From Thalia democratica (taxonomy: Eukaryota): 64,000 bases of DNA. The stretch spans positions 64,170,001 to 64,234,000 of the forward strand of contig OZ241827.1 of assembly GCA_965202585.1 (NCBI GenBank), in the 5' to 3' direction. The notes below the pieces were generated by a model. That model did not search any database. It saw only the letters and a program-made list of their open reading frames with translations, and was not told the DNA's origin. Positions 15,812 to 56,690 of the stretch are shown piece by piece. A program made the translations under genes and the position numbers. The number at the start of each line of letters is the position of its first letter. Position 1 is the first letter of the stretch.

Positions 15812-15917
15812 TTTTTAACTAAACTATCTGTAAAATGAATAAAATTTAAAATGCTAAACAATTAAGTAATTATTTTATTTCTTACACAGAAAGAACAATT
15901 AATTAAGAATCATTTTA

Positions 15918-25700: not shown

Positions 25701-27189
25701 TTTAAACAAAATTCAGTTAAAGAAACTGAAAGTTTAAAACAAGTTTTAAATGTTAAGTAGTAAAATTTTGAATAGACACAAAGATCTCATCATATATAAA
25801 CTTTTTGTCATCATCAATATTTTTTTACTGAAAAACACTTTTAAAGTAGCTGTACAGTATCTCTTCAAAGCTGTTATACAACTTAACACAGTCTTTTTTA
25901 CATTAAACTTAATTTTAAACTTCCAATAGACCCTAAAACGTGTAATTTAAAAAAAAAACTGTAACTTATTTTGCAAACCTGAAGAAAATTTTCCAAAAAA
26001 AGTTTGCAACCTTGTTTATTTTAAACCAATATTAGATAATTAAAGTCCTTACTTCTCTCTCATATACCCTTGAATCAGACAAATTTGAGAAGAAGCACTA
26101 TTGAAACAGGGTTGCCACACACTCATGATAACTCAGCATATTTTGAAGGTTTTAAATATCTTAAAACAACTGAGTGTGTTATGAATTTTTTTTCTTAGGC
26201 CCAGGCTGACTCAGTACAGTTTTGTTTTTTTTTTCAAAAAAAAGGTAGTTTAAAGACTTTTTATAAATCTCAGAACAGTTTTTATTACTTTTTGAAGTAA
26301 AATCTGCTTAATTTAATTGCACTGTTTTGTTATTTAAAATCTAATATTGTTGAAAAATTAGGTACATCTATATAAAAAACAATAAAAGATTTTGAAAATA
26401 CTTATGTGACTCAGAACATTTATATTTGACTTAAACAGTGACAATCCTGTAGAAAATATGAATTTAAATCAATATAAAATTTGTAAGGTTTTTAAAATTA
26501 TTTGTTTAAAATTTAAATATTTTCACAACTTACACGGTTTCCAAAAAACCTGGAACTTGTTAATTTAGGAATAATAAACTGGAGTTTGGGACATTTTGAA
26601 TAACACCTGGAAAAACCAAGAGACTCTAATAAAAGAAAATCTTTTCAACTTTAATTTTTTAATATTTTAATTTTAAACAGTTGGTACACTTAATGCAATA
26701 AAATATTGACTTAACACATAAATGTATTATATCAATTTTTTATAATTGCAATACAGTTTAACTAACCTAAATTGTAAACATTTAGAGTTAAGGTAACAAC
26801 TCAAGTAGGTTGTTTTTAAATGTTTTTTTGTATTTAGAATTTTGAAACTAATAAATGTTAGTATTTAAAAATACAAATTAGTACATAATTAACAAACAGT
26901 TTTAGGAGTTATATTTAAAAATTTTCGTTTTACTTATATAAAAAAACATTTTCTTTATGTAATTCCTTTGCATTATATATTTGCATTTTAATACATGTAA
27001 ATTTTTTGCATAAAAACAAAGGAGTTTTCTATAAATATATTTATATAGTTTTTAGTAAATCTCTAAGTATTAATTATAGTGATAATATGGTTCTTTATTG
27101 ATTGCTCCTCCAGTTAAACAAAACATATAATTACTAACCTATTAAATAATTTGAATTTATTCATTTTACAGATAGTTTATCTAAAAATA

Positions 27190-27873
27190 ATGGCAGATCC
27201 AAACGACAAAAAGTACCAAAGTTGCTCGGATGAAGAGTTTTATGACATTGTTTTCAATAAGGGATGCCTTGATAGTTTCAACGAAAAGTACTGGTATCCT
27301 CAGCTTAGAAAGTATCAAGACTTCAGGCATGAAAGAGTGATTAACAGCTTGAGACGGGGTACAAGGCATCACTTGGAAAAAAACTTTTCAGACATGCAGT
27401 TCGCTGAAGGCGAAGACAACATGTGGTACAATTCGTACGACTGCACACACCACCAAAAAGGCGATGAAATGTACGATATGTTTGTGGAAGAAGTGCACAG
27501 ACATGTCGTGCTAAATGTTTTGCCCAAGCTGAAAGCCGTTGATGATGAGAACTTACTTGGTGTACTTGCTTCCAGCTGGAAAACTCACATGGACACAATT
27601 AGCACGTTTTCAAAGCTCTTCGAGCATCTGACGCTTTGGATTGAAACAGTTCCAGAGGATGAAAAGCCAAGAGACGGAATTAAGAAAATAGGTATGAAAA
27701 AGTTTAAAACAGAAGTTGTATTGAATGAGGAAGTCAAAGAAAGGTTGACATCGCTCCTGAAGAAACCTACTGAAGAACACGGAGAAGACGCAGGTGAAGG
27801 ATGGGAGGAGATAAAAGAGGTCTATGATATGCTGGTCGATGTGTATTGCTGCGAAGATTTTGAAAATAAATAG
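27190..27873 (+). CDS. Truncated Cullin-3-like protein, 227 aa, copy B (about 79% aa identity to copy A by manual count)
   Basis: Intact ORF from ATG 27190 (MADPNDKKYQSC...), preceded by a TTCATTTTACAG acceptor; colinear with copy A over its full length. Confidence 0.75.
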   Translation: MADPNDKKYQSCSDEEFYDIVFNKGCLDSFNEKYWYPQLRKYQDFRHERVINSLRRGTRHHLEKNFSDMQFAEGEDNMWYNSYDCTHHQKGDEMYDMFVEEVHRHVVLNVLPKLKAVDDENLLGVLASSWKTHMDTISTFSKLFEHLTLWIETVPEDEKPRDGIKKIGMKKFKTEVVLNEEVKERLTSLLKKPTEEHGEDAGEGWEEIKEVYDMLVDVYCCEDFENK

Positions 27874-32229: not shown

Positions 32230-33660
32230 TTTAGTTCAAAATAAATATTTTAGTTATATCTTCAATTAAAAGTTTAACTGACAGTAATGCATTGATTACC
32301 TTTAAAGACCACAAGGAAAACTTTCTTGATAACTTAAAATGCAAACTCCTGAATCCAGCAAAATCAAGTATTGGAATATTCAGTAAAATAAATTTAGACG
32401 AAATAACCCCTAAAATTAAAGAAAAGACTAAATTGCAACAGTGGAAAAACAACGACAATGTTATAACATGGTTTAATAAAATCACCAACAAAAGTAGTTA
32501 CACGTTCATAAAATTAGAAGTAAACGAAAATAACCAGCTCAGACATAGAAACTATACTGCACTCTTGCAAGACAGTCCTTATACATGACAACATAGTTTG
32601 GATCAAAAAGGCTGCGAAAGAAGACCTATTTGACGTGCCGATTGGAAGTTACCATGGCGCGAATTAACCGATTTGTTCCTATTAAATAATCTAAACCAAC
32701 TTTTATCTAAAGAAAACTTCGGGTTATACCGCGATGATGGCCTTTTGATAATTAGAAAACGTTCAAAAAGAATCATAGAAAAAGGATATCAGAGCAGATT
32801 TCTCGGAACAAAACTTAAGAAATAAGATTGAAATAGACAGCAGCAAGGTATATTTCCTGGATATTTCACTTGATCTACAAAATACTTTTACCATCTCTAC
32901 AGAAAATCTAACGCAAAAGAAAAATACATACGTATAAATTCTAACCACCCACCAAGTGTCAAAAGAGTGCTACATAATATGATACAAAATAGATTATCTA
33001 CTCTGTCAAAAAACGAATCTATGCTTAACAAATACAAAGAACCGTACGAAGAAGCGTTAAAAACAGTGACTTTAATAAGGTCCTAGAATACTCAAATCAA
33101 AAGGTGGCACAGCTGACAAAAAAAGAAAAAGAAGAAAAAAAAAGAAAGTATTGTACTACAACCCTCCATTTAGCTCAACTTTAAAAACCAAACTAGGAAA
33201 AGAATTTCTAAAGCTAGTGGACAAACACTTCCCAGAAAAACGGACCTCTTAATAAAATTCTGAACAGAAACACGATCAAAATTAGTTACTCATCTATGCC
33301 TAACATAGAATCTGGAATTAGTAAATCAAATCTTAAAATCATAGAGGAGAGCAAAAGCCAAGAGAAAAATGAAACAACTTGCAATTGCAGAGTTAAAACA
33401 TCATGCCCAGTGGAAGGTAAATGTCTTTCCAGAAGTGTTATATACAAAGCCACGGTAACACACAACAACAAAGAGTACCATTATATTGGATCTACAGCAA
33501 AAAACCTTTAAAATAAGATAAAACGAGCATATGCACAGTTTCAGAAACAAAAATATGAGAGAATCAACGAAACTGAGCTCTTTCATCCAGGCCGCCAAAT
33601 CCAACAAAGAAATGACCAAAAAATGTTAAGTGGAAGATAATACATAAAATTAATCAACGC
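32230..33660 (+). mobile_element. Degenerate Penelope-like element, left part (RT and GIY-YIG), interrupted by the LTR element
   Basis: ITFKDHKENFLDNLKCKLLNPAKSSIG; FGLYRDDGL; NCRVKTSCPVEGKCLSRSVIYKATV...YIGST; frame ends ...VKWKIIHKINQR at the LTR junction. Confidence 0.88.
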
Positions 33661-34956
33661 TGTAGGACACTTGTGCAAAATCTTATTTTGCCTTGTGTCC
33701 AAATTTTTATAATTTAAAGGAATTAATGTTTTTCACTTGATATTATATTTTTTCCTTAAAAAAGAAAACATTGAATAAATATAGTAAAACTGTTTTCCGA
33801 AAAAAAAAACTATTTTTCACAAACAAAATAAGTGCTAGTTAAAATGATTGTTGTCTTTGATTTCTTGATTAAACTGGAAATTGCTGTTCATGGGTGTGGC
33901 TAAGAGAAAATGAGAGAATAAAATGAGAGATCAAGTGATCTACAGTCCAAAGTCCAGGAAAATGAGAGAATCAAATGAGAGATTGCGTGATTTATAGAAA
34001 ATTCTAGAAAAAGAATTCAAAATCTATAAATACGCCCGATCAGAGCATGAAGCGGGCAATCCACCACGAAACAAGCAAGAAGCGACACTCTGCTCCGCAA
34101 AAGAAATAACATCGTCAATAAACAAGCAAGATGATTTCAACAACCATCTAATCGAAGAAGCCCACGCATTCTGTGGCATCGAGAATTTCAGTACTGGAAG
34201 TACTCTTTCATCAAACACTCTAAGTTGGACTCCACGATCGAGTCACAGCGTTCAATCAAGTTTAAGTATACAATCATCTCAGCAAGTAAACCCACACAGA
34301 CTGGGCGCCAACCTTAGCTACACTTCAACGAACAAGTTGTTTTCATACTGTTTGATTCTATCGTATTGTTTATATATTCATATTATCATATATACTCACT
34401 ATTGTATTTGCATTGTAATATTTATATATATTTATATCACCGCATTTATTCACTATTGTATTTGTATTGTAATAATTATACATATTGATATCATCGTGCT
34501 TATTTATTATCGTATTTTATCGCCCGCTCTGCTTACGGAAAGGAAAGGAAAACAGACCACGCTACGTTTAGCAAGATTCTGCAAACGAGACGGACCAACG
34601 TCGAGTGCCAGAAGCTGAGCGAACGGAGACCAGTGACACGCCAAAGGGGGAATCCGGAGCGCGTTTCCTTCTATTTGTTAACATTAAGTGTCTAAACTTA
34701 TTGTGAGCTGTCATTGCGTATTTGTACATAATAAACCAAAATTATTTAGTTTCATTATATTTAGTTAAATAATTATATCATTATGTCCTTAAAACCCTTA
34801 AAAAAGGCATTAGTCCTGAAGGCACCCAGAACTCGGTCCAGAACCGAGATAAGTTGTTCCGAGACTACTGCTAACCTGGAATCCGATGAGATTGTTGAGA
34901 CTGAAACCGAGGCAATTGCGAAGGAAACCAGTGAGGCTCCTAGTCTGGGTAACAAT
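33661..34956 (+). repeat. 5' LTR (1296 bp, TGTAGG...GGTAACAAT)
   Basis: Matches 46097-47392 with only four substitutions noticed and no net indel; TATAAA at 34025-34030; AATAAA at 34730-34735; internal AAATGAGAGA repeats at about 33905-33985. Confidence 0.95.
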
Positions 34957-37596
34957 AATGGCGTCCTCCGAAGCGAACATCCGCCGACCACAGAAGACAA
35001 CACTAAAAAAATTATCGAATTAACTAAATTAGTAGAAAATAGTAACAAACTAATAGAAGATAGATTTAATACTATTTTAAAAACAATTTCTATACAGAAT
35101 TCTCAATCATCGAATATCCCTACAAATACCGAGGTAAGTACAATAAATAATCTTAACCCACATATAAATTTAACAGATCCTGAAAAAATACGACCAACAA
35201 TGACAACAGAGGCGGTATCGACATTACCTACCAACAAAATCCAGACACCAATTCCATTATCAAGCCATGCGTCCAAATCTTGCACAATACCAAGCAATTA
35301 CAATTCAATTTTAAACGTTGACCATTCAAACGAAAGAAATGGAATTCAACCACATGATAATAACCAGTCGATTGCACAGTTACAAAGGCAAATTGACAAC
35401 CTCCAGAAGACAATAAACCAAAATCCTATCCACGAACGTATAACAACCCAACCTAACACCAACCACATTTTTGGCAACCACGATCCGATACCCAGAAATC
35501 AACACTTCCAGCAAACAGTTAATTCGAGGCTATCAAATAGCATTTCTGATAAAGCATTCAGAAAAATTTCAGGGGAAAGACCAAGAGAGGAGTTAAGCCT
35601 CTTCGAGGTTCAATGTAAAAGCCAAGGAACTTTTGATGATCAAACACAATTTCAGATTATTATCGGAATCTGGCCAATTAATGACGTACTTTCTTATGTA
35701 AAAGCTGGCAAACCATCTAGTTATATCTGTTTTAAACAAGAAATCTTAAGTATGACCCCATGTTTGCCAGACATACTTAAACCTCCACCTATCTGGAGCA
35801 GCACTCCAACCTTTAAAGATATCCATCAACTAATATCAAAAGGTCTTACATGCTCTCAAGATGACCTTTACAAACATTTGGCACTGATTTATTGCCCGAA
35901 ATGGGCTAGTAACATTCTAAAAAAAGACCTTGAATTACAAATTGATAAGTTCAAAGGTCGGGTTATGTGGACTCTTGAACAAGGCCCAATTGATTTGAAA
36001 ACAAATTACAACAATAGAAAATCAAACAACCAGTATAATTTTAATGACAAATTTCACAACGCATTCAACCAACAACAAAACCAAAACTTTTCAAATTATA
36101 ACCAGAACAGATACAATCAAGCACAAAACTATAGACCAAATCTAAACCAGTTTGATAATAAAAATAATAACAGGTGTAGTTATCACGTTAGGTTCGGTGA
36201 AAAATCCAATAATTGTGAAGGCCAACAATGCGATATGTACCAAAAATTTTTAGAGAAAAAATTAAGCTTTCTCAAAAATAAACCTGCAGCAGTTAACATG
36301 TCAATAATACAAGATATTTCGAATGCTGAACAAAGTAAAAATTCCACTCAAGACAAACCAGCAAACAGTAATAAAGTAGATGAATGCATTACTAACGACA
36401 GAAATAATGAGGAAATTAAACAAGAAACAAACGAAATAGATGATAAATTCATTAAAAGGAAATTGCCTTATGAAACAAAACTAAAAAACAATACTGAACT
36501 ATTAATAATTGCCGACAATGAAACCTCTGTACAATATCTTTTTGATACTGGTGCAGAAGTTTCGATCATACCCAAATCCATGGTTGACACATATGAAAAG
36601 GACAAGTCAACGCCTAATATATGCGACATAAATGGCAAAACATCTAAAGCATTAGGTTATTCAATGAAGTACGTTAAAATTGGCCTGAAACCGGACCTGC
36701 CACATTCTTTCTACGTAATAGACACAGATATTCCTTTTGCAATTCTAGGGTTAGATTTCATAATTAAACATAAATTAACAATAATACCACAAGAGAAAAC
36801 TATCGTACAAGGTGATTCAGGAGTTAAACTGAAATTAAAACAGCTAACTACTCCTGAAACAAAAATGAAAATAGAAGTAGAAAATCTCCTAAATCTTTTT
36901 CCTGAAATCGACAAAGAACCAAACTACAAAGAAAAGCCCAAGCACAACCATGTCTTAGATATAAAACTTGAAAAAGAATTTTCACCCCGACACCAAAGAG
37001 CAAGGAAAACTAACAAAACTATTTCAAAGGAAATAGAAGATAATTTTGATAAATTACTCAAACAAGGGGCGGTAATAAGAGGCATTTCTGAAATAGTCTC
37101 ACCTTTAACTGTAGTCAGAAAAAAGAATGGAAAGCCAAGGGTATGTGAGGATTACCAATATATTAACCAATGCACTAAAATAATGAGCTACCCTTTACCA
37201 AATATTGACGATCTTTCTTCTATTATACCAGTCAACTCTAAAGTTTTTTCAACACTCGACCTGAGAGAAGCATATTTGAATCTTCCCTTAACTTACCGAG
37301 CACAAAAAGTAGCAGCCATGATTTCTCAATATGGCACATTTTTGCCGTTAAGAACAACCTTCGGCCTTAAGAATGCCCCAATGGCATTCCAAAGGCTTAT
37401 GGATGACATAATGGCTCCATGCCATAATTTCAGCTTTACATACATAGATGACATTATAATTTATTCGAAATCAATGGAAGAACACATGCAACATCTGTTT
37501 GAAGTATTGTTTCAACTTAACAAATTTGGATTGCATAACAATAGGAAAAATGTAAATTCGCCGCTGAAGAAGTTCAATACCTTGGACACATACTGA
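34783..37596 (+). CDS. gag-pol: Gag-protease-reverse transcriptase polyprotein (single frame; frameshifted near end of RT)
   Basis: CSYHVRFGEKSNNCEGQQC Gag CHCC-type motif; YLFDTGAEVSIIP and FAILGLDFI protease motifs; RT motifs PRVCEDY, FSTLDLREAY, FGLKNAPMAFQR, YIDDIII. RT continues in another frame as KCKFAAEEVQYLGHILSSKG from about 37550. Confidence 0.95.
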   Translation: MSLKPLKKALVLKAPRTRSRTEISCSETTANLESDEIVETETEAIAKETSEAPSLGNNNGVLRSEHPPTTEDNTKKIIELTKLVENSNKLIEDRFNTILKTISIQNSQSSNIPTNTEVSTINNLNPHINLTDPEKIRPTMTTEAVSTLPTNKIQTPIPLSSHASKSCTIPSNYNSILNVDHSNERNGIQPHDNNQSIAQLQRQIDNLQKTINQNPIHERITTQPNTNHIFGNHDPIPRNQHFQQTVNSRLSNSISDKAFRKISGERPREELSLFEVQCKSQGTFDDQTQFQIIIGIWPINDVLSYVKAGKPSSYICFKQEILSMTPCLPDILKPPPIWSSTPTFKDIHQLISKGLTCSQDDLYKHLALIYCPKWASNILKKDLELQIDKFKGRVMWTLEQGPIDLKTNYNNRKSNNQYNFNDKFHNAFNQQQNQNFSNYNQNRYNQAQNYRPNLNQFDNKNNNRCSYHVRFGEKSNNCEGQQCDMYQKFLEKKLSFLKNKPAAVNMSIIQDISNAEQSKNSTQDKPANSNKVDECITNDRNNEEIKQETNEIDDKFIKRKLPYETKLKNNTELLIIADNETSVQYLFDTGAEVSIIPKSMVDTYEKDKSTPNICDINGKTSKALGYSMKYVKIGLKPDLPHSFYVIDTDIPFAILGLDFIIKHKLTIIPQEKTIVQGDSGVKLKLKQLTTPETKMKIEVENLLNLFPEIDKEPNYKEKPKHNHVLDIKLEKEFSPRHQRARKTNKTISKEIEDNFDKLLKQGAVIRGISEIVSPLTVVRKKNGKPRVCEDYQYINQCTKIMSYPLPNIDDLSSIIPVNSKVFSTLDLREAYLNLPLTYRAQKVAAMISQYGTFLPLRTTFGLKNAPMAFQRLMDDIMAPCHNFSFTYIDDIIIYSKSMEEHMQHLFEVLFQLNKFGLHNNRKNVNSPLKKFNTLDTY
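34959..34976 (+). promoter_or_regulatory. Putative primer-binding site TGGCGTCCTCCGAAGCGA
   Basis: TGG (complement of tRNA CCA) starts 2 nt after the LTR end. The first 8 nt, TGGCGTCC, match the complement of a typical tRNA-Asn 3' end; tRNA identity is not established. Confidence 0.65.
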
Positions 37597-37613
37597 GTAG
37601 CAAAGGTTTCTAT

Positions 37614-39311
37614 ATGCAACAAAGTAAAGTTGAAGCTATCGAAAACTTCCAAACCCCACAAACCATCAAACATTTGCGGTCCTTTCTTAGCTGTCTAAAC
37701 TACTACAACAAATTCGCTCCGAAACTGGCAGAAATACTTCAACCATTATATAAATTAACAACAGGAGAGCCAAAAAATTCTAGAAAAAAATTAATCTGGG
37801 AAACTGAACACCAAGCAGCATTTGAAAAAGCTATACAAACTCTAGTTTCGGCCACTCATCTCTCTTATGAAGACCCAAAAAAAGAACTAGTTCTTTCTAC
37901 AGACGCATCCTCTACTCATATTGGAGCCGTCCTAGAACAAAAGCATGAACCAGGAAATTATAAACCTTTAGCATTTTTTTCAAAAAAACTACCAGTCCTT
38001 AAATCAGTAAGATCCGTATTTTTCAGAGAACTCACAGGTCTTTATCTGAGTATTAAACATTTTAAGGTCAGAATCATAGGAAGACAGCTTCGGGTAAGAA
38101 CAGACCATAGAGCCTTGGTAGATGCTATTAACAATGCTACGGGAAATCATTCACCAAAAGAAGAAAAATATATTGCTATAATAAAAGAATATGCCCCCTT
38201 GATGGAATTTATTCCAGGCGATCAAAACACAACAGCTGACTTATTAAGCCGTCCGGTACTCGTTGCATACAACGATAAAAACTCAGAAGAAGAGGAAGAA
38301 AACAGTGGAGAAATTGATGTTAACGATAAAACAATAAATTCTTACACAAATTATGATTTAGACCAGGAAATCACACAAAATGAATCAGAATCTAATCAAT
38401 TTATTCCCTTAAATATTAAGATAATTTCAGAAACGCAAAGTCAAGCCAATGTACATTTACCTACCCTCATAGCAAACTCTCAAAAGCAACAAAACCAGAT
38501 CATTTTTGAGTCTAGATTGATAGATAATTGTGTAGTACAAGGTATCATTGAAACAAAAACCCATAGTTTTCGTATATGGGTTCCGCCCAAATTAAGATCT
38601 AATATCTTAAATCAAAATCATAACATCTTACACCAAGGAATTGATAAAACTTTAACAGCAGTAGGATCTAATTTCTGGTGGCCAAAAACGAAAAAAGATG
38701 TTGAACTCTTTGTAAAAACTTGTATAACATGCCAAAAAGTGAAGGTAAGGAAATATAATAGACCTAAATTAGGTTGTTACCCAAATTCACTTGGAAGATT
38801 TGACTATGTTCATGCAGACTTGGTAGGACCTTTGGTTGAATCTCAAAACATGAAATATATACTTACCATTAAAGAACGGTATACTGGTCTTTTTGCATCA
38901 TGTCCCTTACCCAACAAAATGGCAGAGACCGTAAAGAACGCATTTCTCCAAAATTGGATTGGTCATTATGGAATACCATGTACAATAGTTACAGATAATG
39001 GCAAAGAATTCTTTAACCATCATTTCGAAACTATGTGTTCGGATCTATCTATCAAACATAATCTCACCGCGCCATACCACCCTGAAACCAACGGAATGGT
39101 AGAAAGACAACATAGAGAGTTAAAAACGGCCTTAAGAACATTGAAGAATAAACTTAACTGGGTGCAACATCTTCCTATTATCACTCTAGCTCTAAACAAT
39201 CAGAGCATTGGTCGTAAAGGATTTAGCCCTGCTCAATATACTTTTGGAACACCCTTAAATATTCCTGGAAAGTTATTCTTTCCGAACACAAACACATTCG
39301 AACCTCCTTAA
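37614..39311 (+). CDS. pol: RT connection, RNase H and integrase (HHCC, DDE); ends at an in-frame TAA within integrase
   Basis: LSTDASSTHIGAVL, RELTGL, RTDHRAL, NTTADLLSR (RNase H); HNILHQG...CITC (Zn finger); VHADLVGPL, IVTDNGKEF, PETNGMVERQHRELK (DDE). Confidence 0.95.
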   Translation: MQQSKVEAIENFQTPQTIKHLRSFLSCLNYYNKFAPKLAEILQPLYKLTTGEPKNSRKKLIWETEHQAAFEKAIQTLVSATHLSYEDPKKELVLSTDASSTHIGAVLEQKHEPGNYKPLAFFSKKLPVLKSVRSVFFRELTGLYLSIKHFKVRIIGRQLRVRTDHRALVDAINNATGNHSPKEEKYIAIIKEYAPLMEFIPGDQNTTADLLSRPVLVAYNDKNSEEEEENSGEIDVNDKTINSYTNYDLDQEITQNESESNQFIPLNIKIISETQSQANVHLPTLIANSQKQQNQIIFESRLIDNCVVQGIIETKTHSFRIWVPPKLRSNILNQNHNILHQGIDKTLTAVGSNFWWPKTKKDVELFVKTCITCQKVKVRKYNRPKLGCYPNSLGRFDYVHADLVGPLVESQNMKYILTIKERYTGLFASCPLPNKMAETVKNAFLQNWIGHYGIPCTIVTDNGKEFFNHHFETMCSDLSIKHNLTAPYHPETNGMVERQHRELKTALRTLKNKLNWVQHLPIITLALNNQSIGRKGFSPAQYTFGTPLNIPGKLFFPNTNTFEPP

Positions 39312-40451
39312 TTATTTGAAACAGAGATATTTATAAAAAATATGAAAGAATTTACTAGGGAGTGGAGAAACCCAGACGAAGCTACAACATATATCGAAAA
39401 ACATTTACATGAAGCAAAACAAGTTCTAGTAAAAAATCACACAAGACATTCACTAGATCATTTGTACAAAGGCCCTTTTAATGTAATAGAACGAGGTCCG
39501 CATTCTTTCATAATTGACCAAGGGTCAGAATTTAAAAAAATTGCTATTGGAAATTTGAAAGCATATTTTCCTAGATATCCAACTGCAAGTAGGGACAGAT
39601 CTGAAAATACTAACTATAATTTGAGAGCGAGAAACAAACTCAAAATTAATACAAAATTCAGCATGATGAGCGAAAACAAACTAAAATATATTCAACGTCC
39701 ATTAATCAGAGACAAATCTAATGGGCTACTATATTTAATTGATTCAGGCTCGGATGTTTCCATCATGCCTGCACATCTAACTAATTACATAAATTGCGCC
39801 AAAACTGATGAAATAAAGAGTTTCTCTGGTCAAACTGAAAGAGCACTAGGGATAAGTCAAGCTAACATTAACATCGGTATTCCCAAACTGTACTCCTACG
39901 AATTTTCAGTTTTTCCCAATGGGCACAATTTTGCAATTCTGGGACTAGATTTCATAAATCAATGGAATATCGTTATTGCTATAGCTGCAAACGCGATTTT
40001 TCATGTCAATGGCAACGATTCGCCAATCAGAATAGAAATAGAAAGAAACCATATTGAAAAAATGCAAGAAAAACCATTAGATCTTAGGACAGATCGCTCT
40101 AAAAATGATAGCAAAATAACAATACCAAAAATGAAAAAATCAATAAAGGAAACAGTTGAAGTTACAAGAATGGAAAAATATCAAAGTAAGCACGAAGGTC
40201 TTAAAAACCTCTTGACAAAGAAAGTTCGAAAGAAATTTAACCCAAGAGACCAAAAATATAATAACAACGATTTAATACATAATAAAAAAACATGTTGCAA
40301 AACTCTTTGGAACTATATCCAACTCAGAACTCAACTAGAACAGGACCGCTTCACCAATATTTTACAGCGAAATATTAAGCAAATCATGGTTGGTTTTCAC
40401 AACAAACGTAAAAAAAGTTTAAAAAAAAAAAAAACTATAATAAATAGCTAG
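39312..40451 (+). CDS. Integrase C-terminal GPY/F domain followed by a second retropepsin-like protease and a basic tail (same frame as 37614 ORF)
   Basis: 39342-37614 = 1728, so both ORFs share a frame and only TAA 39309-39311 separates them. HLYKGPFNVIERG (GPY/F); YLIDSGSDVSIMP (Asp at 39741) and FAILGLDFI. Confidence 0.88.
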   Translation, partial: LFETEIFIKNMKEFTREWRNPDEATTYIEKHLHEAKQVLVKNHTRHSLDHLYKGPFNVIERGPHSFIIDQGSEFKKIAIGNLKAYFPRYPTASRDRSENTNYNLRARNKLKINTKFSMMSENKLKYIQRPLIRDKSNGLLYLIDSGSDVSIMPAHLTNYINCAKTDEIKSFSGQTERALGISQANINIGIPKLYSYEFSVFPNGHNFAILGLDFINQWNIVIAIAANAIFHVNGNDSPIRIEIERNHIEKMQEKPLDLRTDRSKNDSKITIPKMKKSIKETVEVTRMEKYQSKHEGLKNLLTKKVRKKFNPRDQKYNNNDLIHNKKTCCKTLWNYIQLRTQLEQDRFTNILQRNIKQIMVGFHNKRKKSLKKKKTIINS

Positions 40452-42433
40452 TATCAACGTTTTAAAATTCAAATAGATTCTTTTAATTAGCTTTTATTTA
40501 ATTGATAATAATTATTTATTAACCAATTAATTCGTTTTTTTTTTTTTGTTTTTTTTTTTTTTTTAACTTAATTGAAAGACATGATAAAACAAAGGCTTAA
40601 TATAACAATACGGGTTGGAAACTAATAAATAAAGGAATCCAAAACATCACACTTAACAGTCATAACGATCATTTACACTTTGCTTCGTACAATTAAAATT
40701 ATATCGATAAATTAACTAATAGCATTTTTTTTTTAACAATCAAAAACTTTATGTATAAAACTATGTTTAAAAAAATATATAAACATAAAACTAAATAATT
40801 TAAATAAAAAGTATTAAAAATAAAAAATAATAAACAAGAAAAAAAAACAAAAAAATATATATATATATCTAAATATAAATATATTAGTATATATAAAATA
40901 TATCTGAATTCTTAAACTAACACCAAAATTTATGTACAAACACGCTTTTACTTTTTCTCAATGCATATTGGTACTACTCCATCTAATGCGAATGACTAAA
41001 TGCAGTAAACTTAGTGTGTACATACTAAATGTAAAGAAAAATCGTTTTTCTATTTTTCTCTATTTAGCTTCACTTCTGTTATTTTTATCTTTCCCGTGCA
41101 CCTGTAATTAATTTTAAATTGACATTTTTGTGTTATTATAGATAAATTTAGTAACTAAACAAGGGAATCATGTTTACGACACACCTGCAAAACAAACTTA
41201 ACTATTAGGGTTAAATTCTTTCGAATGAACTCGCTTTAAGTTTTATTAAACGTTTCCCAATTTGAATCGCTACACGTGCTTCGTTACATTGATGCACGTG
41301 TCAATAAAATCAGAAGGGCTTAAAGACTCCCTTTAACGCTTTGTTACTATCGTTAATTCTAAAATTAAAACTTAATAGCACTTGTGAACAAATTGGTAAA
41401 CGTTTCTTATCTTTTTTTCTTTCGAGTTATAACTTTCATTCACTGAAACAAGATTTATTTCAGATTTGTATTCATTTAGAACAGCTTTCATTAGAATATG
41501 TAACTCAATCTTAAAATTGTAAGTTTAGATTATGTGTTTTTGCTTCTTAGTTTGTTAATTTTTTTTAAAATAAACAAAAGTTTATTTTTGTAAAAATAAT
41601 TCTGTGTTTATTCTTTTTTCGAAATTGAATTAATAATTGTGTTAATCATAATCAAATTAGTTGCCAGATGTATGTTATTTTAATTTTCGTTATTAGAAGT
41701 ATGCATTATTACTTTTTGTCTTCGTTTTTTCTTTTCACTTTGTTTATCAAACACAGATTATAATTGACATTAAATATATCCACTGACTATTTGAATTTTA
41801 ATTTACTCTACAATTTTCTTTTTTTCTTTCTTTCCGCTTTCCACCAATCAATTGTCCCATCTTCATAAAAAAACAATACTTAAAACATGAATTATATATA
41901 TTTATACACCCTAAAAAAGAAACTTAATAGTAATAATTGTGGAATTAAGTAAATAAAAACAAAAAATTATCAAATTAGTAATACATAATTAAATATCAAA
42001 AATAAAGATATCTATAAATATACAATAATAAATATAAAACCTTGTAGTAAATATTTTGAACAATAACCAAACAAAATACGCGTAATATCAGACGATATCT
42101 CAAAATGACTACCAAGTTAATCAAACCAAACTCAATTAACCATAAGTATAATAATTTGTTTATGTAATTCCTGACCAATACATTTCAGAACAACATTCAA
42201 AATGCATGTGTAATCTATCCGCTTAATTCAGTTTAGCAATCTTCAGTCATCATCACTATTAAATAAACACTAAAAAGAACTAATATTCGGCGTTATGCCG
42301 TACATTTTGTTGATTATACATGCATTTACACAAATACACTATACACATAATTGCCTTGCCACATATCGCATAAAAACATTATTAACAAAGCTAATAACAA
42401 ACTAATATTTTCCAGATTTAGCTTTTAATAATT

Positions 42434-44257
42434 ATGAAGTTATTCTTTCTCAATATAAGTCTGTTTGCCTGTCTTTTCTTTCTTGGAGACAACGTTTTTT
42501 GTCAATCTAATAAAACAATCTTAGACCTAAGATTTCAAAATGTAGACATATGCTTCGATAAGCACATTGTAAAAACTTACTTTATAACTCCTTCAATCGG
42601 AGGTTGCGCTGAACCGGACACAACTTACCAAATAATTAAAGATATTAATATATACCCGCCTGCAGATACGACAATACACATAAACGCAATAGCGTGCAGA
42701 GAGGTCGTGTCCACGTATAAAAACATAATGTGGTGGACTTTCACAAAAAGGTCTACATTAATAAATAAAAGGTCTTTTTCAGTCGCAAGCGATCGCTGTG
42801 TAAGGTGGGTTAAGCAAAGAACTGACCCAATTCTTGGGGATCTATTTAAACATTCAATAACTCCTCATACTTATGTTACACTGAACAAAAAACAAAATAT
42901 TTTCTATTATCTTCAGGGAGTGACTGAGAATGTTAGAAACGCACAAACTTTAGAAACAACCTTAATCTTTAGTAGGCAAACCCTAACAGGTAGCCATTTT
43001 ACCACGTCAGACTTAGAATGTAATGTTTTAAAGGGGGTATGTATTTCCAAGACTGACACATTCTTATTCACTCCTTTTGAGAATAAATGTAAAACTTGGA
43101 AACCATATAAAGGGTTATCTCTACTTAAATACAACATGAAAAATGGAAACCTTTACCAGGTTCCTGAACTAGACCTTGCGTTTCATAGGTTAATACCTTG
43201 CCCTGAATATGTACACAAATGCATTAGAGAAGTCGATGAAAATAAACAAATAAGGTGTACACCCACAAATTTTGCTCTTAGTTTTTCAAATATTTCGACG
43301 CTAGTAGATGATAACTTAAAAATAAAACTAAACCAATATAATAATATAAGTGCACGAGACAATATATTAAGTCAAGCTATTCAATCTTTAGCCATTAAAA
43401 CAAATTCAGCCATAGAAAAGCTCGCCCAAGAGTTCTCAAGTGTGCTGTGCAAATTGGGTGAAATCTCAATAACCAACTTGCGCAACACCCAATATCGCAA
43501 ACCCAGTGAGACTTTGAGTCTCATGCTGGGCAGGAAAGTTAAGGCAACCATGATAGGTGAGTTACTTGCACAAATCTCGTGCACCAAAGTAAACGCAACC
43601 TTAGTACCAACTCTACGTATCGGCGATGAAATGTCTCCAAGGCCTCTATTTAGGATTCATTTCGCAAACGAGTCAAAAATCGCACAATACACTTCGGAGG
43701 GCTATTTAAGATGGGGTCTCAAAGGCTTAACCTCTCATTTAACTGAACAAGTAACCATATTTGTAATAGAAGGAATCGCCATAGCGTTTAAAAATGGGTC
43801 TCTCTTAAATGAACTGCCTGAGATAAATAAATTAGGGCTTCATCCTACTTCTGTTATTCCTGATTCTATAGACTATGATGAAGGAATACTTTTAAATGAA
43901 TTATCGACTGCGTCAGACCCAAATAATTTGGGTTCAATGAACCACATGCTGCAAAGCATACTGGGAATCACTTCTGAGCATCTTATAGCTAATGGGGTAA
44001 ACAAGGAGCTGTTAAATAAATATTTGACTGTCCCTATGAATAAAAATGAACATCTGTCCTTCATTAAAGAAATTAAACAATTCTTCCGCCCCAAAGTTTC
44101 TAACATTATAAAAAAAATCGCTCTATTCGGATCTTTAACAATCACCTTTCTAACTACGCTCTTAATAACGTATATCTTTTGTGGATTTACACTTAAAGCT
44201 ATTATTAAGAGTACCAGAACAAAAACAAAAAATAATAAAAATGAAAACCAGAGTTAA
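42434..44257 (+). CDS. env: Envelope-like type I membrane glycoprotein, 607 aa, probably class III (gB-like) fusogen
   Basis: N-terminal hydrophobic signal MKLFFLNISLFACLFFLG; Cys-rich ectodomain with NKT, NIS, NAT, NES, NGS sequons; C-terminal TM IALFGSLTITFLTTLLITYIFCGF; short basic tail; lies between pol and 3' LTR. Confidence 0.85.
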   Translation: MKLFFLNISLFACLFFLGDNVFCQSNKTILDLRFQNVDICFDKHIVKTYFITPSIGGCAEPDTTYQIIKDINIYPPADTTIHINAIACREVVSTYKNIMWWTFTKRSTLINKRSFSVASDRCVRWVKQRTDPILGDLFKHSITPHTYVTLNKKQNIFYYLQGVTENVRNAQTLETTLIFSRQTLTGSHFTTSDLECNVLKGVCISKTDTFLFTPFENKCKTWKPYKGLSLLKYNMKNGNLYQVPELDLAFHRLIPCPEYVHKCIREVDENKQIRCTPTNFALSFSNISTLVDDNLKIKLNQYNNISARDNILSQAIQSLAIKTNSAIEKLAQEFSSVLCKLGEISITNLRNTQYRKPSETLSLMLGRKVKATMIGELLAQISCTKVNATLVPTLRIGDEMSPRPLFRIHFANESKIAQYTSEGYLRWGLKGLTSHLTEQVTIFVIEGIAIAFKNGSLLNELPEINKLGLHPTSVIPDSIDYDEGILLNELSTASDPNNLGSMNHMLQSILGITSEHLIANGVNKELLNKYLTVPMNKNEHLSFIKEIKQFFRPKVSNIIKKIALFGSLTITFLTTLLITYIFCGFTLKAIIKSTRTKTKNNKNENQS

Positions 44258-44670
44258 TGACATTATAATTTGTAGCTCATACTTAATTTTTTTTTCTCTT
44301 CTTCTCCTTCTTCAAATTCTTTTGATTAATGTAAAAGCTCGCTACTTTTATTCTATTTTCTTGTCTTTATTTGGTATATCAATAAAAAAAGAAAAAATTA
44401 TACAAAACAATCTTTCTATTCTAAACACTATCTTTGCCATCCTTGACTTGAAGGACCTCTTTCTCATTTTTCTGCATAAGTCTAGATAAAAAGAAAAAGA
44501 TAGCCAAAAATTCTTTTGTTTTCTTTTTACAATAAAACAAGTTTAGTACCAATCCTTACTACATTTATGAATCGTTGATAATTTATTTTTGCTTTCTTTT
44601 TGTTACTGTAACTATAAAAAAACATTTGAATTGTCAACAGTCATTAAAAATTAAAAAAAAAAAAAAAGAG

Positions 44671-45018
44671 ATGAATCTTTTACAAGTAGAAGACCTTGAC
44701 TTTCTGTTGGACGAAGAACTACCTGAATTAGATCATGAAATGGTTGAAAACTTCTTCCGGCCAATCCAACAAGAAGAAGAGTTTGAAAAGGATAGCGACC
44801 TAGGTTATGAAAGTGACGACGAAAACAAGTACATCGAAGAGAGAGAAGCTCCACTGATAGCTCCACCAGTGCCAATCATTGAACAGAATTGGCATCGTTT
44901 GAGGGATGACGAAAGGATGTTGGATCCCGAGCTTCTAACAATCCTAATCGACATCATGTTAGAGGCCGAAAGACTGGGAGATAACGTTTTTGAAGAAGTG
45001 TATGAGGGCGACTTTTAA
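44671..45018 (+). CDS. Small acidic accessory ORF (115 aa) of the LTR element, unknown function
   Basis: ATG 44671 to TAA 45018; GC and codon-like composition clearly above the flanks; D/E-rich with PLIAPPVP; AATAAA follows at about 45045. Confidence 0.65.
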   Translation: MNLLQVEDLDFLLDEELPELDHEMVENFFRPIQQEEEFEKDSDLGYESDDENKYIEEREAPLIAPPVPIIEQNWHRLRDDERMLDPELLTILIDIMLEAERLGDNVFEEVYEGDF

Positions 45019-45125
45019 AGGAAAGGTATGTGAACATTAATGCTAAATAAAAGATTTTTTTTTTAAATTATAATAGTCATAAAAAAATTAACATGTTTTT
45101 TTTTTGTTGTTTCTTCCCAAGTATT

Positions 45126-45291
45126 NNNNNNNNNNNNNNNNNNNNNNNNNNNNNNNNNNNNNNNNNNNNNNNNNNNNNNNNNNNNNNNNNNNNNNNNNNN
45201 NNNNNNNNNNNNNNNNNNNNNNNNNNNNNNNNNNNNNNNNNNNNNNNNNNNNNNNNNNNNNNNNNNNNNNNNNNNNNNNNNNNNNNNNNNN
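45126..45291. other. Assembly gap (166 N)
   Basis: Run of N inside the 3' non-coding part of the LTR element. Confidence 1.
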
Positions 45292-46096
45292 TTGTCTATA
45301 TATGTGTGTTTATTTTTTATTATTATTATTTGTTTTTCAGATTTTTTTTTGTGTGTACCTTTGACCTTATAAACTACAATAACTCCAGGTAATTAAATAA
45401 TATTAACATTGATTTGCTTCTATCTATTCACTTTTAACCTTAAGCAATCTAGAATTCAAATCTATTATCAACACGTTTATTTGAGTTGTTACCTTTACAC
45501 ATTTTATTACCGAAATCTATCTGAGTAATTCTTTTGAAATACAAAATTTTAATATGACAACGTTGTATACTTATCGAATTAATTTTTTTTTTGAATGTTT
45601 GAACAAGTACATCATTTGAATCAGTTATAAGTTAAACTCAATTTTCTTCTATCCTTCGATGTTTAAAATTTTTCATTGTAAACCTGTTTTGTTTCTCAGT
45701 AAATCTTTGATTTTCTAATAATACATTTTTCCATTAAATATTAATATTTCTTAACTAAAGAAAATAGAAAAATAAAAAACATTGTTAAAATTGTTATTTG
45801 TACTTTAAATTTATTTGCATTTATCATCTCAACCCTCCGACAACTTGATAATGTATCATTTTTTTTTAGAAAGATTAAAGTTATTAATTTGAACATTTTT
45901 TTTTTTTTTTTTCAAGCATGATAAACCCGCTCTAATTCCTTATTATTCTTTTCTTTCAAAAGTTATTTTACACTTAGACATTTTAAGTTAATTTTCGTCC
46001 CCTTAATAATAGTTTTTTCTCATAAGTTTTTTTTACAAGTTAATAAAAAATTTTTTTAGTAAAAGAAAAATAAAAAAAAAGAAAAACATAAGTCGA

Positions 46097-47392
46097 TGTA
46101 GGACACTTGTGCAAAATCTTATTTTGCCTTGTGTCCAAATTTTTATAATTTAAAGGAATTAATGTTTTTCACTTGATATTATATTTTTTCCTTAAAAAAG
46201 AAAACATTGAATAAATATAGTAAAACTGTTTTCCGAAAAAAAAAACTATTTTTCACAAACAAAATAAGTGCTAGTTAAAATGATTGTTGTCTTTGATTTC
46301 TTGATTAAACTGGAAATTGCTGTTCATGGGTGTGGCTAAGAGAAAATGAGAGAATAAAATGAGAGATCAAGTGATCTACAGTCCAAAGTCCAGGAAAATG
46401 AGAGAATCAAATGAGAGATCGCGTGATTTATAGAAAATTCTAGAAAAAGAATTCAAAATCTATAAATACGCCCGATCAGAGCATGAAGCGGGCAATCCAC
46501 CACGAAACAAGCAAGAAGCGACACTCTGCTCCGCAAAAGAAATAACATCGTCAATAAACAAGCAAGAAGATTTCAACAACCATCTAATCGAAGAAGCCCA
46601 CGCATTCTGTGGCATCGAGAATTTCAGTACTGGAAGTACTCTTTCATCAAACACTCTAAGTTGGACTCCACGATCGAGTCACAGCGTTCAATCAAGTTTA
46701 AGTATACATTCATCTCAGCAAGTAAACCCACACAGACTGGGCGCCAACCTTAGCTACACTTCAACGAACAAGTTGTTTTCATACTGTTTGATTCTATCGT
46801 ATTGTTTATATATTCATATTATCATATATACTCACTATTGTATTTGCATTGTAATATTTATATATATTTATATCACCGCATTTATTCACTATTGTATTTG
46901 TATTGTAATAATTATACATATTGATATCATCGTGCTTATTTATTATCGTATTTTATCGCCCGCTCTGCTTACGGAAAGGAAAGGAAAACAGACCACGCTA
47001 CGTTTAGCAAGATTCTGCAAACGAGACGGACCAACGTCGAGTGCCAGAAGCTGAGCGAACGGAGACCAGTGACACGCCAAAGGGGGAATCCGGAGCGCGT
47101 TTCCTTCTATTTGTTAACATTAAGTGTCTAAACTTATTGTGAGCTGTCATTGCGTATTTGTACATAATAAACCAACATTATTTAGTTTCATTATATTTAG
47201 TTAAATAATTATATCATTATGTCCTTAAAACCCTTAAAAAAGGCATTAGTCCTGAAGGCACCCAGAACTCGGTCCAGAACCGAGATAAGTTGTTCCGAGA
47301 CTACTGCTAACCTGGAATCCGATGAGATTGTTGAGACTGAAACCGAGGCAATTGCGAAGGAAACCAGTGAGGCTCCTAGTCTGGGTAACAAT
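46097..47392 (+). repeat. 3' LTR
   Basis: Copy of 33661-34956; followed by AACGC. Confidence 0.95.
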
Positions 47393-47397
47393 AACGC

Positions 47398-47910
47398 AAA
47401 CCGAGCAAAATTTGCTTTCTGTGCAATGTAAAAAGACTTGAAATAGCATTTGCCGACAAAAATTTATCCCTCAACTCCAGAACTGAGTTAATTGGCAAAT
47501 GCAGACACTTCGCTAAATTTTATTTAAAATCATAATGTTGTCATGTCCACATTTACAAATTTTATAAGTATATTACATCCGTGCTTGCAGTTTATTTTAT
47601 TTTGTTTTTAATTTATTTATTTTGACATTATTATTTTTATTGTATTATTGTTGCATTTGTGTTTTCTAGCTATTTATTTATTTATCTATTTTGTACTTAT
47701 CTAATAGGTTTTCTTAATTGGCCATTAATCATTTTGGTGTCTTGTTAATCTAGCAAGCTCATTTAATTTAATCAGTTGTAATAAGAATACAATAAGTGTT
47801 GATTAGTGTTGTTTAGTATATATGGCTTTGTCTATCTTACTTTATAGCGTTTTTAATCGTGATCATTGCTTTGCATGAAACACCGTGTTGAATAAAACTC
47901 TCAATCTGAA
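47398..47910 (+). mobile_element. Right part of the interrupted Penelope-like element (endonuclease C-terminus and 3' region)
   Basis: KPSKICFLCNVKRLEIAFADKNLSLNSRTELIGKCRHFAKFYLKS* (stop 47533-47535) continues the frame that ends at 33660. Confidence 0.88.
47851..47897 (+). ncRNA. Minimal type I hammerhead-ribozyme-like motif, G3:C8 variant
   Basis: TTTTAATC-GTGATCA-tTGCtttGCAt-GAAACA-ccg-TGT-T-GAATAAAA: stem I 7/8 paired, stem II 3 bp, stem III 3 bp, GUU cleavage triplet. Confidence 0.55.
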
Positions 47911-49599: not shown

Positions 49600-50940
49600 A
49601 GAAAAACAATATATAAAGTCTTTTAAAGTCGGTTACTGGAGGTTTGTTCCAATATAATAAGCAATTATATACACAAATAGATGGCGTAAGCATGGGAAAC
49701 CCACTAGCGCCTACTATAGCAAATTACTTCATGGGAACATTGGAAAAAAAATCTCTTTAACACCGAAGATGAAAATAATCCAGTTTTATACCTTCGATAT
49801 GTCGACGACATATTCTGTATCTTCCGAAAAGATGTCTCATTCGAAAAATTCCACAAAAAGTTAAATAAACTACATAAGTCTATCAACTTCACATATGAAT
49901 TAGGTGGAAACGAACTCCCATTTTTGGACATTAATATCAAACTAAAGAGAGAGGAAATAACAACAAAGGTACACAAAAAAGACATTGATACAGATGTCAT
50001 TTTAAATTTTAGTGCAGTGGCACCAATTAAATGGAAAAGAGCTCTAATACTGTGGTTTGTAAACAGAGCGAGAATTATAGCTTCTATGCATAACATTTAC
50101 AAACAAGAAATCACAAGCTTAAAAGAAAAATTCTTTAAGAATGGTTATCCAAAGAAATTTGTTGATGACATAATTGAAAGATCTCTTAATATTAATAAAG
50201 ACTGCACTAAACAAAAACTAAGTAACTCAGATTTCAAAAATGTGATAAAGATACCTTATATTGGAAAACCTAGTATCGAGTATAAAAAGAAACTAGAAAA
50301 GCTTCTAAACAATTACATCGAAGAATTCAAAGTAATCTTTACCACAACAAAAGTAAGCAATTACTTCAGTAATAAAGATAGGACACCCCATGAATTAAAA
50401 TCAAACGTGGTCTATGAGTATAAATGCTCTTATGATAAGAGTATCCAATATATTGGATTCACTTCACGACCATTAGTAGAAAGAATTAAAGAACATTTAA
50501 AAGGCAAAACATCGGTATCGGACCATATTAGCAATTGTAATGTTTGTAAAAATGAAAAAATAACTGTTAATAATTTTGGAATTTTGAAAGAATGTAGAAA
50601 TAAATTTGAGACCCTGATAAGTGAAGCTCTACTAATTAAACGCTATAATCCAATTTTAAATAAACAATTAATTAAACCGGGTATTACCCACACATTAAGA
50701 ATTTTTGATTAGTTTGATATATATTAGTTTAACAATTTGTTAGTACTTATGTAAAATGTTATTTTATTAGAGTTTATAATCTTAATTTATAAAATTTTTA
50801 TATAATGTATCACTTATAAATTTTTTTTTGTATATTTAGTTGTTTATCACTAATTTTATTTATTTTGCACAGTATTTTGTTGATAATGACTTATTGAAAG
50901 TCGAAACGTCGTCATGCGAATAAATTTTAAACGTAGAATG
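49600..50940 (+). mobile_element. 5'-truncated Penelope-like element (different family), RT C-terminal half plus GIY-YIG ORF
   Basis: QIDGVSMGNPLAPTIANYFMG; frameshift in poly-A at about 49750; YLRYVDDIFCIF, LPFLDI; VVYEYKC...YIGFTSRPLVERIKEH; open to 50712. Confidence 0.9.
50861..50922 (+). ncRNA. Hammerhead-ribozyme-like motif, U3:A8 variant, at PLE 3' end
   Basis: TTGATAA-t-GACTT-attga-AAGTC-GAAAC-gtc-GTC: perfect 5-bp stem II and GUC triplet; stem I only partly paired. Confidence 0.5.
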
Positions 50941-55953: not shown

Positions 55954-56690
55954 TGTCTTCTGTCACCAACAAAAATGACGTTAACGCTTTAAAAGAGCTG
56001 ATTATAAAAACATCAAGATGTTTTCAAAACATTAAGAGGTTTGCAATTACCAGTTATGTAACATATCACAGTAAAGCAGAGTTTACAACTATCATATCAC
56101 AGTAGTAATGAGCTACAACTATCACATCACAGTAGTAATGAGCTACAACTATCACATCACAGTAGTGAGGCGCTACAACTATCACATCACAGTGGTAATG
56201 AGGTACAACTATCACATCACAGTAGTTAGTATATACAACTCTCACATCACAGTAGTAAGGAGCTACAACTATCACATCACAGTGTTTAGTACTCTTCACT
56301 ACTGTGATGTGATAGTTGTAGCTCGTCACCGCTGTGATGTGATAGTTGTGGCTCATTCCTACTGTGATATGATAGTTGTAGTTCCTCATCACTGTGATAT
56401 GATAGTTGTAGTTCCTAACTACTGTGATGTGATAGTTGTAGCTCATTACTACTGTGATGTGATAGTTGTAGTTCCTTACTACTGTGATGTGATAGTTGTA
56501 GCTCATTACTACTGTGATGTGATAGTTGTAGTTCCTAACTACTGTGATGTGATAGTTATGAACTCTTCTTTACTACGATGTGTTACATAACTGGTAATTG
56601 CAAACTTCTCAATGTTTTAGAAACATCTTGATGTTTTTATAATCAGCTCTTTTAAAACGTTAACGTCATTTTTGTTCGTGACAGAAGACA
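55954..56690. repeat. Foldback element: ~360-bp inverted arms containing a 30-bp minisatellite
   Basis: TGTCTTCTGTCAC..ACAAAAATGACGTTAACG...GCAATTACCAGTTATGTAACA mirrored at 56580-56690; 30-bp unit (CAGTAGTAATGAGCTACAACTATCACATCA) about 7 times forward and 9 times reversed around a ~20-nt centre near 56290. Confidence 0.92.

Follow-up and report, generated by a model that had tools for sequence, protein, structure and literature searches.

A multicopy tunicate Ty3/gypsy element with a plausible glycoprotein-B-like envelope gene and a likely active second protease downstream of integrase

Introduction

Chary and Hayashi (2026; PMC13524379) catalogued 1512 Ty3/gypsy elements with env, of either F type or HSV/gB type, in several lineages. 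In the accessible portion of that catalogue, nine of the 15 tunicate rows are ascidian gB-type elements (C3 env type) belonging to one RT clade, all six appendicularian rows have F-type env, and the only thaliacean genome screened gave no hits. The survey's prefilter accepted pol-env distances of up to 1000 nt, and entry by a gB-type Env without partner glycoproteins is raised there as an open question.

Other relevant systems are described in the available text of three further papers. The CsRN1 clade (CsRn1, PwRn1, Kabuki, Boudicca and Saci-3) is defined by the Gag signature C-x2-H-x9-C-x3-C, priming by tRNA-Trp and 4-bp target duplications, and an env-like third ORF is on record for Boudicca and Saci-3 (PMC2582038). 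Tor elements of Oikopleura make their env product by splicing or from an internal promoter (PMC4402516). Burro/GYPSM1 and other LTR elements have captured extra domains or ORFs, which lie within pol, behind it, or behind env (PMC6431247).

The element described here lies in an assembly of Thalia democratica (GenBank GCA_965202585.1, contig OZ241827.1), within a stretch of 64,000 nt (positions 64,170,001 to 64,234,000 of the forward strand) that we call the window and to which all coordinates refer unless another locus is named. The mitochondrial COX1 of this assembly scores 423.8 bits under the ascidian code, against 383.7 under table 5 and 349.6 under table 4, and has AGA/AGG at conserved glycines, which identifies the host as a tunicate; a search for the cellulose-synthase family gave no candidate and was uninformative on this point. 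A preliminary description of the locus had proposed a young Ty3/gypsy element with retrovirus-like architecture and four extra modules, possibly an independently derived lineage.

Results

Boundaries, insertion site and copies

Comparison of the LTRs and of sibling copies places the element at 33661-47393, inserted into a Penelope-like repeat. Its terminal features are as follows.

33657..33660 (+), left target-site duplication, 4 bp (ACGC), the same four bases recurring at 47394-47397
33661..34957 (+), 5′ LTR, 1297 bp, TG...TA, with TATAAA at 34025 and AATAAA at 34730
34959..34968 (+), primer-binding site, a 10-nt complement of the host tRNA-Asn(GTT) 3′ end
46097..47393 (+), 3′ LTR, from the LTR alignment
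47394..47397 (+), right target-site duplication, from sibling-copy comparison

The LTRs are near-identical, as had been reported: 33661-34957 and 46097-47393 align without gaps and with four mismatches in 1297 bp. The target duplication is also present, at a length of 4 bp rather than the 5 bp first given, and the element accordingly ends at 47393 with LTR termini TG...TA. We infer limits for U3, R and U5 within the 5′ LTR; a 206-aa frame in the LTR was rejected as a gene, being unconserved among copies. The primer-binding site, likewise confirmed, starts one base past the 5′ LTR and matches the tRNA 3′ end over 10 nt; the matching tRNA gave 132 pattern matches genome-wide, and all three loci scanned were tRNA-Asn(GTT).

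The repeat hosting the insertion is a broken Penelope-like GIY-YIG element (32874-33660 and 47398-47640) for which the genome has 40 or more similar loci, its GIY-YIG-type motifs having been recognised by eye. Because the left and right flanks adjoin each other in four of four other copies of this repeat, the insertion is genuine.

A search of the genome with the env protein gave at least 72 scored matches (72 of 166 candidates were scored). Eighteen places, whose env is 95-100% identical to that of the window, constitute family A. A sister family, B, occupies seven places with env about 61% identical, one further degraded place lying outside the analysis, and many further matches stand at 24-28%. 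Identity between the window copy and most other members of family A is about 97-98.5%. LTR pairs in family A are 98-100% identical, with six of 17 fully so, which bears out the reading of a young Ty3/gypsy element. Of the 18 family-A copies, the one in the window included, 15 show the 4-bp target duplication and the remaining three yielded no matching pair; all seven family-B copies show it. When the LTR itself was used as query, 40 of 324 candidates were scored, and 11 of these lie away from the 18 elements and are probably solo LTRs. At least nine related families that carry env and include recent copies are present in this genome. One family-B copy (L045-L046) has an internal duplication of 2.25 kb that takes in the last part of env as well as the acidic ORF described below.

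A single Gag-Pol frame, broken twice in the window copy

The coding features upstream of env are listed here.

34783..37596 (+), gag-PR1-RT (5′ part) frame, ending at an RT frameshift private to the window copy
36175..36231 (+), Gag Cys-His motif C-x2-H-x9-C-x4-C, a sequence motif
36517..36783 (+), PR1, canonical retropepsin (D-T-G), Pfam RVP E 5.6e-6
37545..39311 (+), RT (3′ part)-RNase H-integrase frame, closed by a stop that only the window copy has
39312..40451 (+), the same frame past the stop: integrase C-terminus, GPY/F (about 39468-39488) and PR2, followed by a basic tail that varies
39684..40031 (+), PR2, the second retropepsin domain, on the C-terminal side of integrase and with D-S-G, flap and ILGLDF; its Pfam match (E 2.8e-4) falls below the cut-off

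The protease, RT, RNase H and integrase domains of the described gag-pol were all found by Pfam in the window element, where their frame is interrupted by a frameshift in RT, at which the two frames overlap (37545-37596), and by an in-frame stop at 39309-39311, past the integrase core. Both lesions are private to this copy: the frameshift occurs in 0 of 17 other copies and the stop in 0 of 16. A single frame runs from PR1 through RT to PR2 in ten of 18 family-A copies, in five of seven family-B copies and in the public protein P0203. The full frame, of about 1820-1950 codons, comprises Gag, PR1, RT, RNase H, integrase, GPY/F, PR2 and a variable tail. The second protease noted in the preliminary description therefore exists as a motif, but it is a domain of Gag-Pol in those ten copies and not an extra ORF; it seems separate in the window only because of the private stop and the RT frameshift. 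In nine of the 18 family-A copies gag-pol, env and the acidic ORF are all open, gag-pol lacking its initial codons in one of them. The window copy is not among these, and it is incapable of moving on its own.

A gag start inside the LTR is typical of Ty1 and is not known to be typical of Ty3/gypsy. The first gag ATG of the window element nevertheless lies 175 nt inside the LTR, and the same holds for eight of nine related families including the window's own (34783-34968), so that the primer site is read as coding sequence.

The second protease

To our knowledge, all well-studied LTR retroelements have a single dimer-activated protease, placed before RT. PR2 departs from this arrangement. Its catalytic D-[ST]-G is kept in 17 of 18 family-A copies, in all seven family-B copies and in P0203, and D-S/T-G, the flap glycine and ILGLDF are intact in all three lineages. 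P0203, a protein of 1964 aa that is 75% identical and represents a cluster of 18, has the same layout and was the sole public protein found with a PR2-region query among 1156 candidates.

Between families A and B (one natural copy of each), PR2 is 52% identical (pN 0.30, pS 0.74, dN/dS about 0.11) and PR1 68% identical (pN 0.18, pS 0.74), whereas the tail flanking PR2 is only 30% identical (pN 0.46, pS 0.68). By this comparison PR2 is under purifying selection, the dN/dS values being rough because pS is near saturation. PR2 diverges about twice as fast as PR1 (dN 0.39 versus 0.20), which also fits a relaxed or non-catalytic role. Taken with the intact motifs, these substitution patterns make it likely that PR2 is kept by selection and is proteolytically active.

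The best non-orthologous matches of PR2 in the genome are the PR1 domains of its own family, at 34-36% identity. Tree building with 43 protease domains unites the three PR2 domains and makes them sister to the three PR1 domains of the same elements (87/81), although support for this sister relationship is moderate and the bootstrap unsettled; by pairwise score, two of three PR2 queries matched a protease of another family slightly better than PR1. The domain is thus likely, on these comparisons, to be an internal duplicate of the element's own PR1.

We examined 130 other proteins, 76 of which have a protease domain; in none of the 76 does that domain lie past 60% of the protein length, and four have two protease domains ahead of RT. 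These four are public Pol proteins of a neighbouring branch (P0022, P0028, P0047 and P0056) with tandem proteases before RT, so protease duplication recurs in this region of the tree. PR2 is absent from seven related families of the genome that carry env and replicate, one of them with a one-frame gag-pol; PR2 is therefore dispensable both for carrying env and for one-frame expression. Our search of the open-access literature found no description of a duplicated or post-integrase protease.

Env

42434..44257 (+), env, 607 aa, class III (glycoprotein-B-like) fusogen according to Pfam, Atlas and structure search

The env-like ORF is present as described and its 607-aa product is a plausible fusogen. 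It has a hydrophobic N-terminus or signal peptide, a cysteine-rich ectodomain, one C-terminal anchor at about residues 563-590 and eight sequons, and a scan of its 607 residues gave no furin motif. Pfam matches to herpes gB (E 1e-5) and to the Monjiviricetes fusion protein (E 7e-5) both fell below the cut-off, and the gB match recurs in six of 15 aligned env relatives. Nearly all Atlas matches at 0.92-1.00 are class III viral fusogens, with a low recognition value. A model was built from the 15-sequence alignment (pLDDT 68, pTM 0.36). When it was submitted to Foldseek, all listed PDB matches were herpes gB, with HSV gB at the top (best E 1.2e-18), TM-scores against gB being about 0.3-0.4 (highest 0.40); among viral models, the matches included gB and chu-, rhabdo- and nyami-like glycoproteins. 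A profile search of PDB sequences with the env alignment gave no matches, env searches of a 5.8-billion protein set gave only two proteins each, and no env relatives were found in viral and metagenome contigs. The model and the structural matches place Env in the class III, gB-like fold and make it a plausible fusogen.

Env is open in 12 of 18 family-A copies, and the family-A and family-B sequences differ with pN 0.24 and pS 0.76, values that speak for purifying selection on env. Insect errantiviruses (gypsy, ZAM and Idefix) are marked by an F-type env with a furin site, which this element lacks; their exclusion in the preliminary description is upheld by the class III Env without a furin motif.

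The acidic ORF, the spacers and candidate subgenomic RNAs

35128..35139 (+), candidate splice donor in gag (a weak lead), at the same place and phase in the sister family
40452..42433 (no strand), pol-env spacer, about 2 kb, AT-rich and indel-rich, with candidate splice acceptors in its last 20 nt
44671..45018 (+), acidic ORF, 115 aa, 32% Asp+Glu, from copy comparison
45019..46096 (no strand), 3′ spacer, partly masked in the window, ending in an A-rich purine tract

The small acidic ORF of 115 aa, already noted in the preliminary description, has no Pfam family match. It is open, at 113-115 aa, in 16 of 18 family-A copies, and in family B the corresponding position is occupied by an acidic ORF of 121 aa (five of seven copies, by motif); the two are 27% identical, a similarity reached by one in 2000 shuffles. 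Among family-A copies, distinct indels per kb come to 8.6 for the acidic ORF; gag-pol and env have 3-4, and the spacers 50-65. By these counts the acidic ORF behaves like a constrained gene.

The long non-coding spacers are likewise present, and the sequence that they have in common between families A and B is only of low complexity. Across related families the pol-env gap ranges from 0.75 to 6.6 kb, so that long spacers are a trait of the clade. Of the four extra modules proposed, env is thus a known gene, in-frame PR2 is new, and the small ORF stands, but the spacers are unconserved as sequence.

A donor-like site occurs in gag at +351 in family A and at +357 in six of seven family-B copies, in phase 0 in both, and acceptor-like sites lie upstream of env and upstream of the acidic ORF. 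These sites suggest subgenomic RNAs, the conservation of the donor being weak evidence because the surrounding region is about 65-70% alike between the families. A 234-aa public fragment, P0029, is 90% identical to the RT/RNase H of the window and bears the source label 'merc', which we take to denote a marine metatranscriptome-derived catalogue; it hints that a close relative of the window element is transcribed.

Comparison with described elements

The element has the LTRs, target duplication, primer site and PR-RT-RH-IN order of Ty3/gypsy (Metaviridae) elements. It also corresponds to the operational class of Ty3/gypsy elements with a gB-type env, termed 'errantiviruses', as the accessible text of PMC13524379 describes it, having gag, pol and env between LTRs, open in copies, and an env with a predicted class III gB-like fold, a signal peptide and an anchor (pLDDT 68, pTM 0.36). 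With the ascidian gB-type elements of that catalogue it shares a Ty3/gypsy Pol, the order gag-pol-env, a class III env, a multicopy state and a tunicate host; by eye, the cysteine spacing of env domains I-II and several motifs also look similar. Since this class is described and widespread, with nine ascidian members catalogued (PMC13524379), the suggestion of an independently derived new lineage was not sustained and is unlikely.

Differences from the catalogued elements are nevertheless apparent in the portion of PMC13524379 available. Some related families in the Thalia genome appear to have a Trp-type primer site, as one catalogued ascidian element does; the Asn primer of the window element occurs in none of the nine ascidian rows. 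That portion makes no mention of a second protease, an acidic ORF or a gag start inside the LTR like those of the window element, and the 2-kb pol-env gap of the window exceeds the 1000-nt prefilter. Where pol and env lie this far apart, as they do across the related families, a survey that caps the distance would presumably overlook the element.

With the CsRN1 clade as described in PMC2582038 the element has in common the C-x2-H-x9-C core, the 4-bp duplication and GPY/F, and one-frame gag-pol is common to the window family and some CsRN1 members. It differs in its primer (Asn, against Trp) and in the last Gag spacing, which is x4 in A, B and P0203, against x3. The CsRN1-type Gag motif of the preliminary description is accordingly correct in its core, the motif as a whole being one residue longer than the published signature. 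Judged from these sequence features, the element is CsRN1-like in Gag and is probably not a member of the CsRN1 clade, lacking both the x3 signature and the tRNA-Trp primer. The Pol proteins of A, B and P0203 form a branch separate from public proteins with C-x2-H-x9-C-x3-C (100% SH-aLRT, 34-37% identity), in a tree with midpoint root and unnamed references. In an RT-RH-IN tree of 29 rows, built by a quick method with midpoint root and unnamed references and leaving out two broken-pol families, the cluster of A, B and P0203 (100) has as its sister group (99) two public proteins and five further families of the genome that carry env, none of them with PR2.

Oikopleura Tor elements are likewise tunicate Ty3/gypsy elements with env, and some have a gap separating pol from env; Tor Env is furin-cleaved (PMC4402516), unlike the class III env of the window, which has no furin motif. 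For elements of the Burro/GYPSM1 type, the available text of PMC6431247 describes no second retropepsin after integrase, in contrast to the window element. What is new here is a selected post-integrase protease together with a small accessory ORF, the envelope being already known.

Discussion

The reading that we favour, and consider reasonably probable, is that the copy in the window is a damaged member of a tunicate Ty3/gypsy family that multiplied recently, whose one-frame Gag-Pol ends in a likely active and likely duplicated PR2, and whose gB-like env is predicted to fuse particles with other cells of the same animal. In this scheme the LTR would drive genomic RNA, Gag-Pol would be translated from the ATG inside U5 and the polyprotein cut by PR1, reverse transcription would be primed by tRNA-Asn, and the 4-bp duplications would be made by integrase. 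PR2 would most likely be freed from the integrase C-terminus, dimerise like any retropepsin and serve as an auxiliary maturation protease of diverged specificity, for example in trimming or turning over surplus Pol of the one-frame Gag-Pol. Env and the acidic protein would most likely come from subgenomic RNAs, spliced or made via an internal promoter in the spacers, and the acidic protein would most likely be a disordered accessory factor.

A bolder reading sees a still infectious 'complex' metavirus of the chordate lineage, with a class III fusogen, an acidic accessory protein and two working retropepsins, PR2 having a job of its own either in a tethered dimer with PR1 or in cleaving a host protein; we think this unlikely, and none of the literature searched describes such an arrangement. 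Retropepsins are obligate dimers, and PR1 and PR2 lie in one frame with both active-site half motifs kept, so that they might pair within one chain into a tethered dimer active ahead of particle assembly. Tandem PR domains do occur in four of the 76 other Pol proteins examined; in the present element, however, some 1000 residues (RT, RH and IN) separate two domains that are only about 35% identical, and early protease activation is harmful in retroviruses, leaving this arrangement improbable. Scarcely better placed is an anti-host effector that cuts a restriction or signalling protein, the acidic ORF being a second accessory gene as in complex retroviruses. Its faster divergence than PR1 with the active site intact, its dispensability in sister families and the different accessory ORFs after env in other families of the clade would all suit PR2 to such a role; the two or three lineages compared are too few to reveal positive selection.

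PR2 sits directly past GPY/F, in the position that the chromodomain holds in chromoviruses, and its dN exceeds that of PR1, as might be expected of a non-catalytic dimerisation or targeting module on integrase. We doubt this interpretation about as much as the tethered dimer, given that three lineages, at a near-saturated synonymous distance, all retain Asp-Ser/Thr-Gly, the flap glycine and ILGLDF. That the assembly, or a one-off chimera, has brought unrelated pieces together between two LTRs would accord with the two breaks in the window copy and has a negligible claim: the genome-wide search for siblings called for in the preliminary description recovered at least 18 near-identical copies, the same order of parts is found in all 18 and in the divergent sister family B, and the flanks adjoin in four of four empty-site copies, so that this explanation is refuted. 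A selected retropepsin after integrase is a natural test case for how a one-frame Gag-Pol governs the dose, timing and specificity of its protease, and for how internal duplication gives rise to accessory genes. The env-bearing families with recent copies, moreover, sit in the sister group of vertebrates.

Related families and other features of the window

Several related families carry further parts. In a gB-env family of about 18.3 kb (L073-L075; G000:C7:46256000-46279000) the pol-env gap is 6.6 kb and, in a sibling, contains a tandem array with a 31-bp period; an acidic ORF of 694-736 aa after env (L073:4516-6597:-) has no Pfam match. A family of about 16 kb has a 404-aa ORF after env and a 148-aa ORF before it (L059:3362-4573:- and L060:362-805:-), with about 500 extra residues ahead of the protease, and its extra parts have no Pfam match. 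At L051-L052 and L071-L072, gag and env lie between near-identical LTRs with most of pol missing, likely a non-autonomous derivative that keeps env.

Elsewhere in the window, a second Penelope-like RT/GIY-YIG frame of 330 aa lies at 49720-50712 (+; Pfam GIY-YIG E 1.4e-6). Intronless inverted paralogues at 15131-15814 (-) and 27118-27873 (+) encode a short cullin N-terminal-like protein (Pfam Cullin E 2.2e-10 for the latter) and are possibly truncated cullin decoys or retrocopies. A tandem array with an inverted half at 56066-56590 produces repetitive open frames on both strands, and fragments at 57004-57663 and 62291-62677 look, by eye, like hAT-type transposases.
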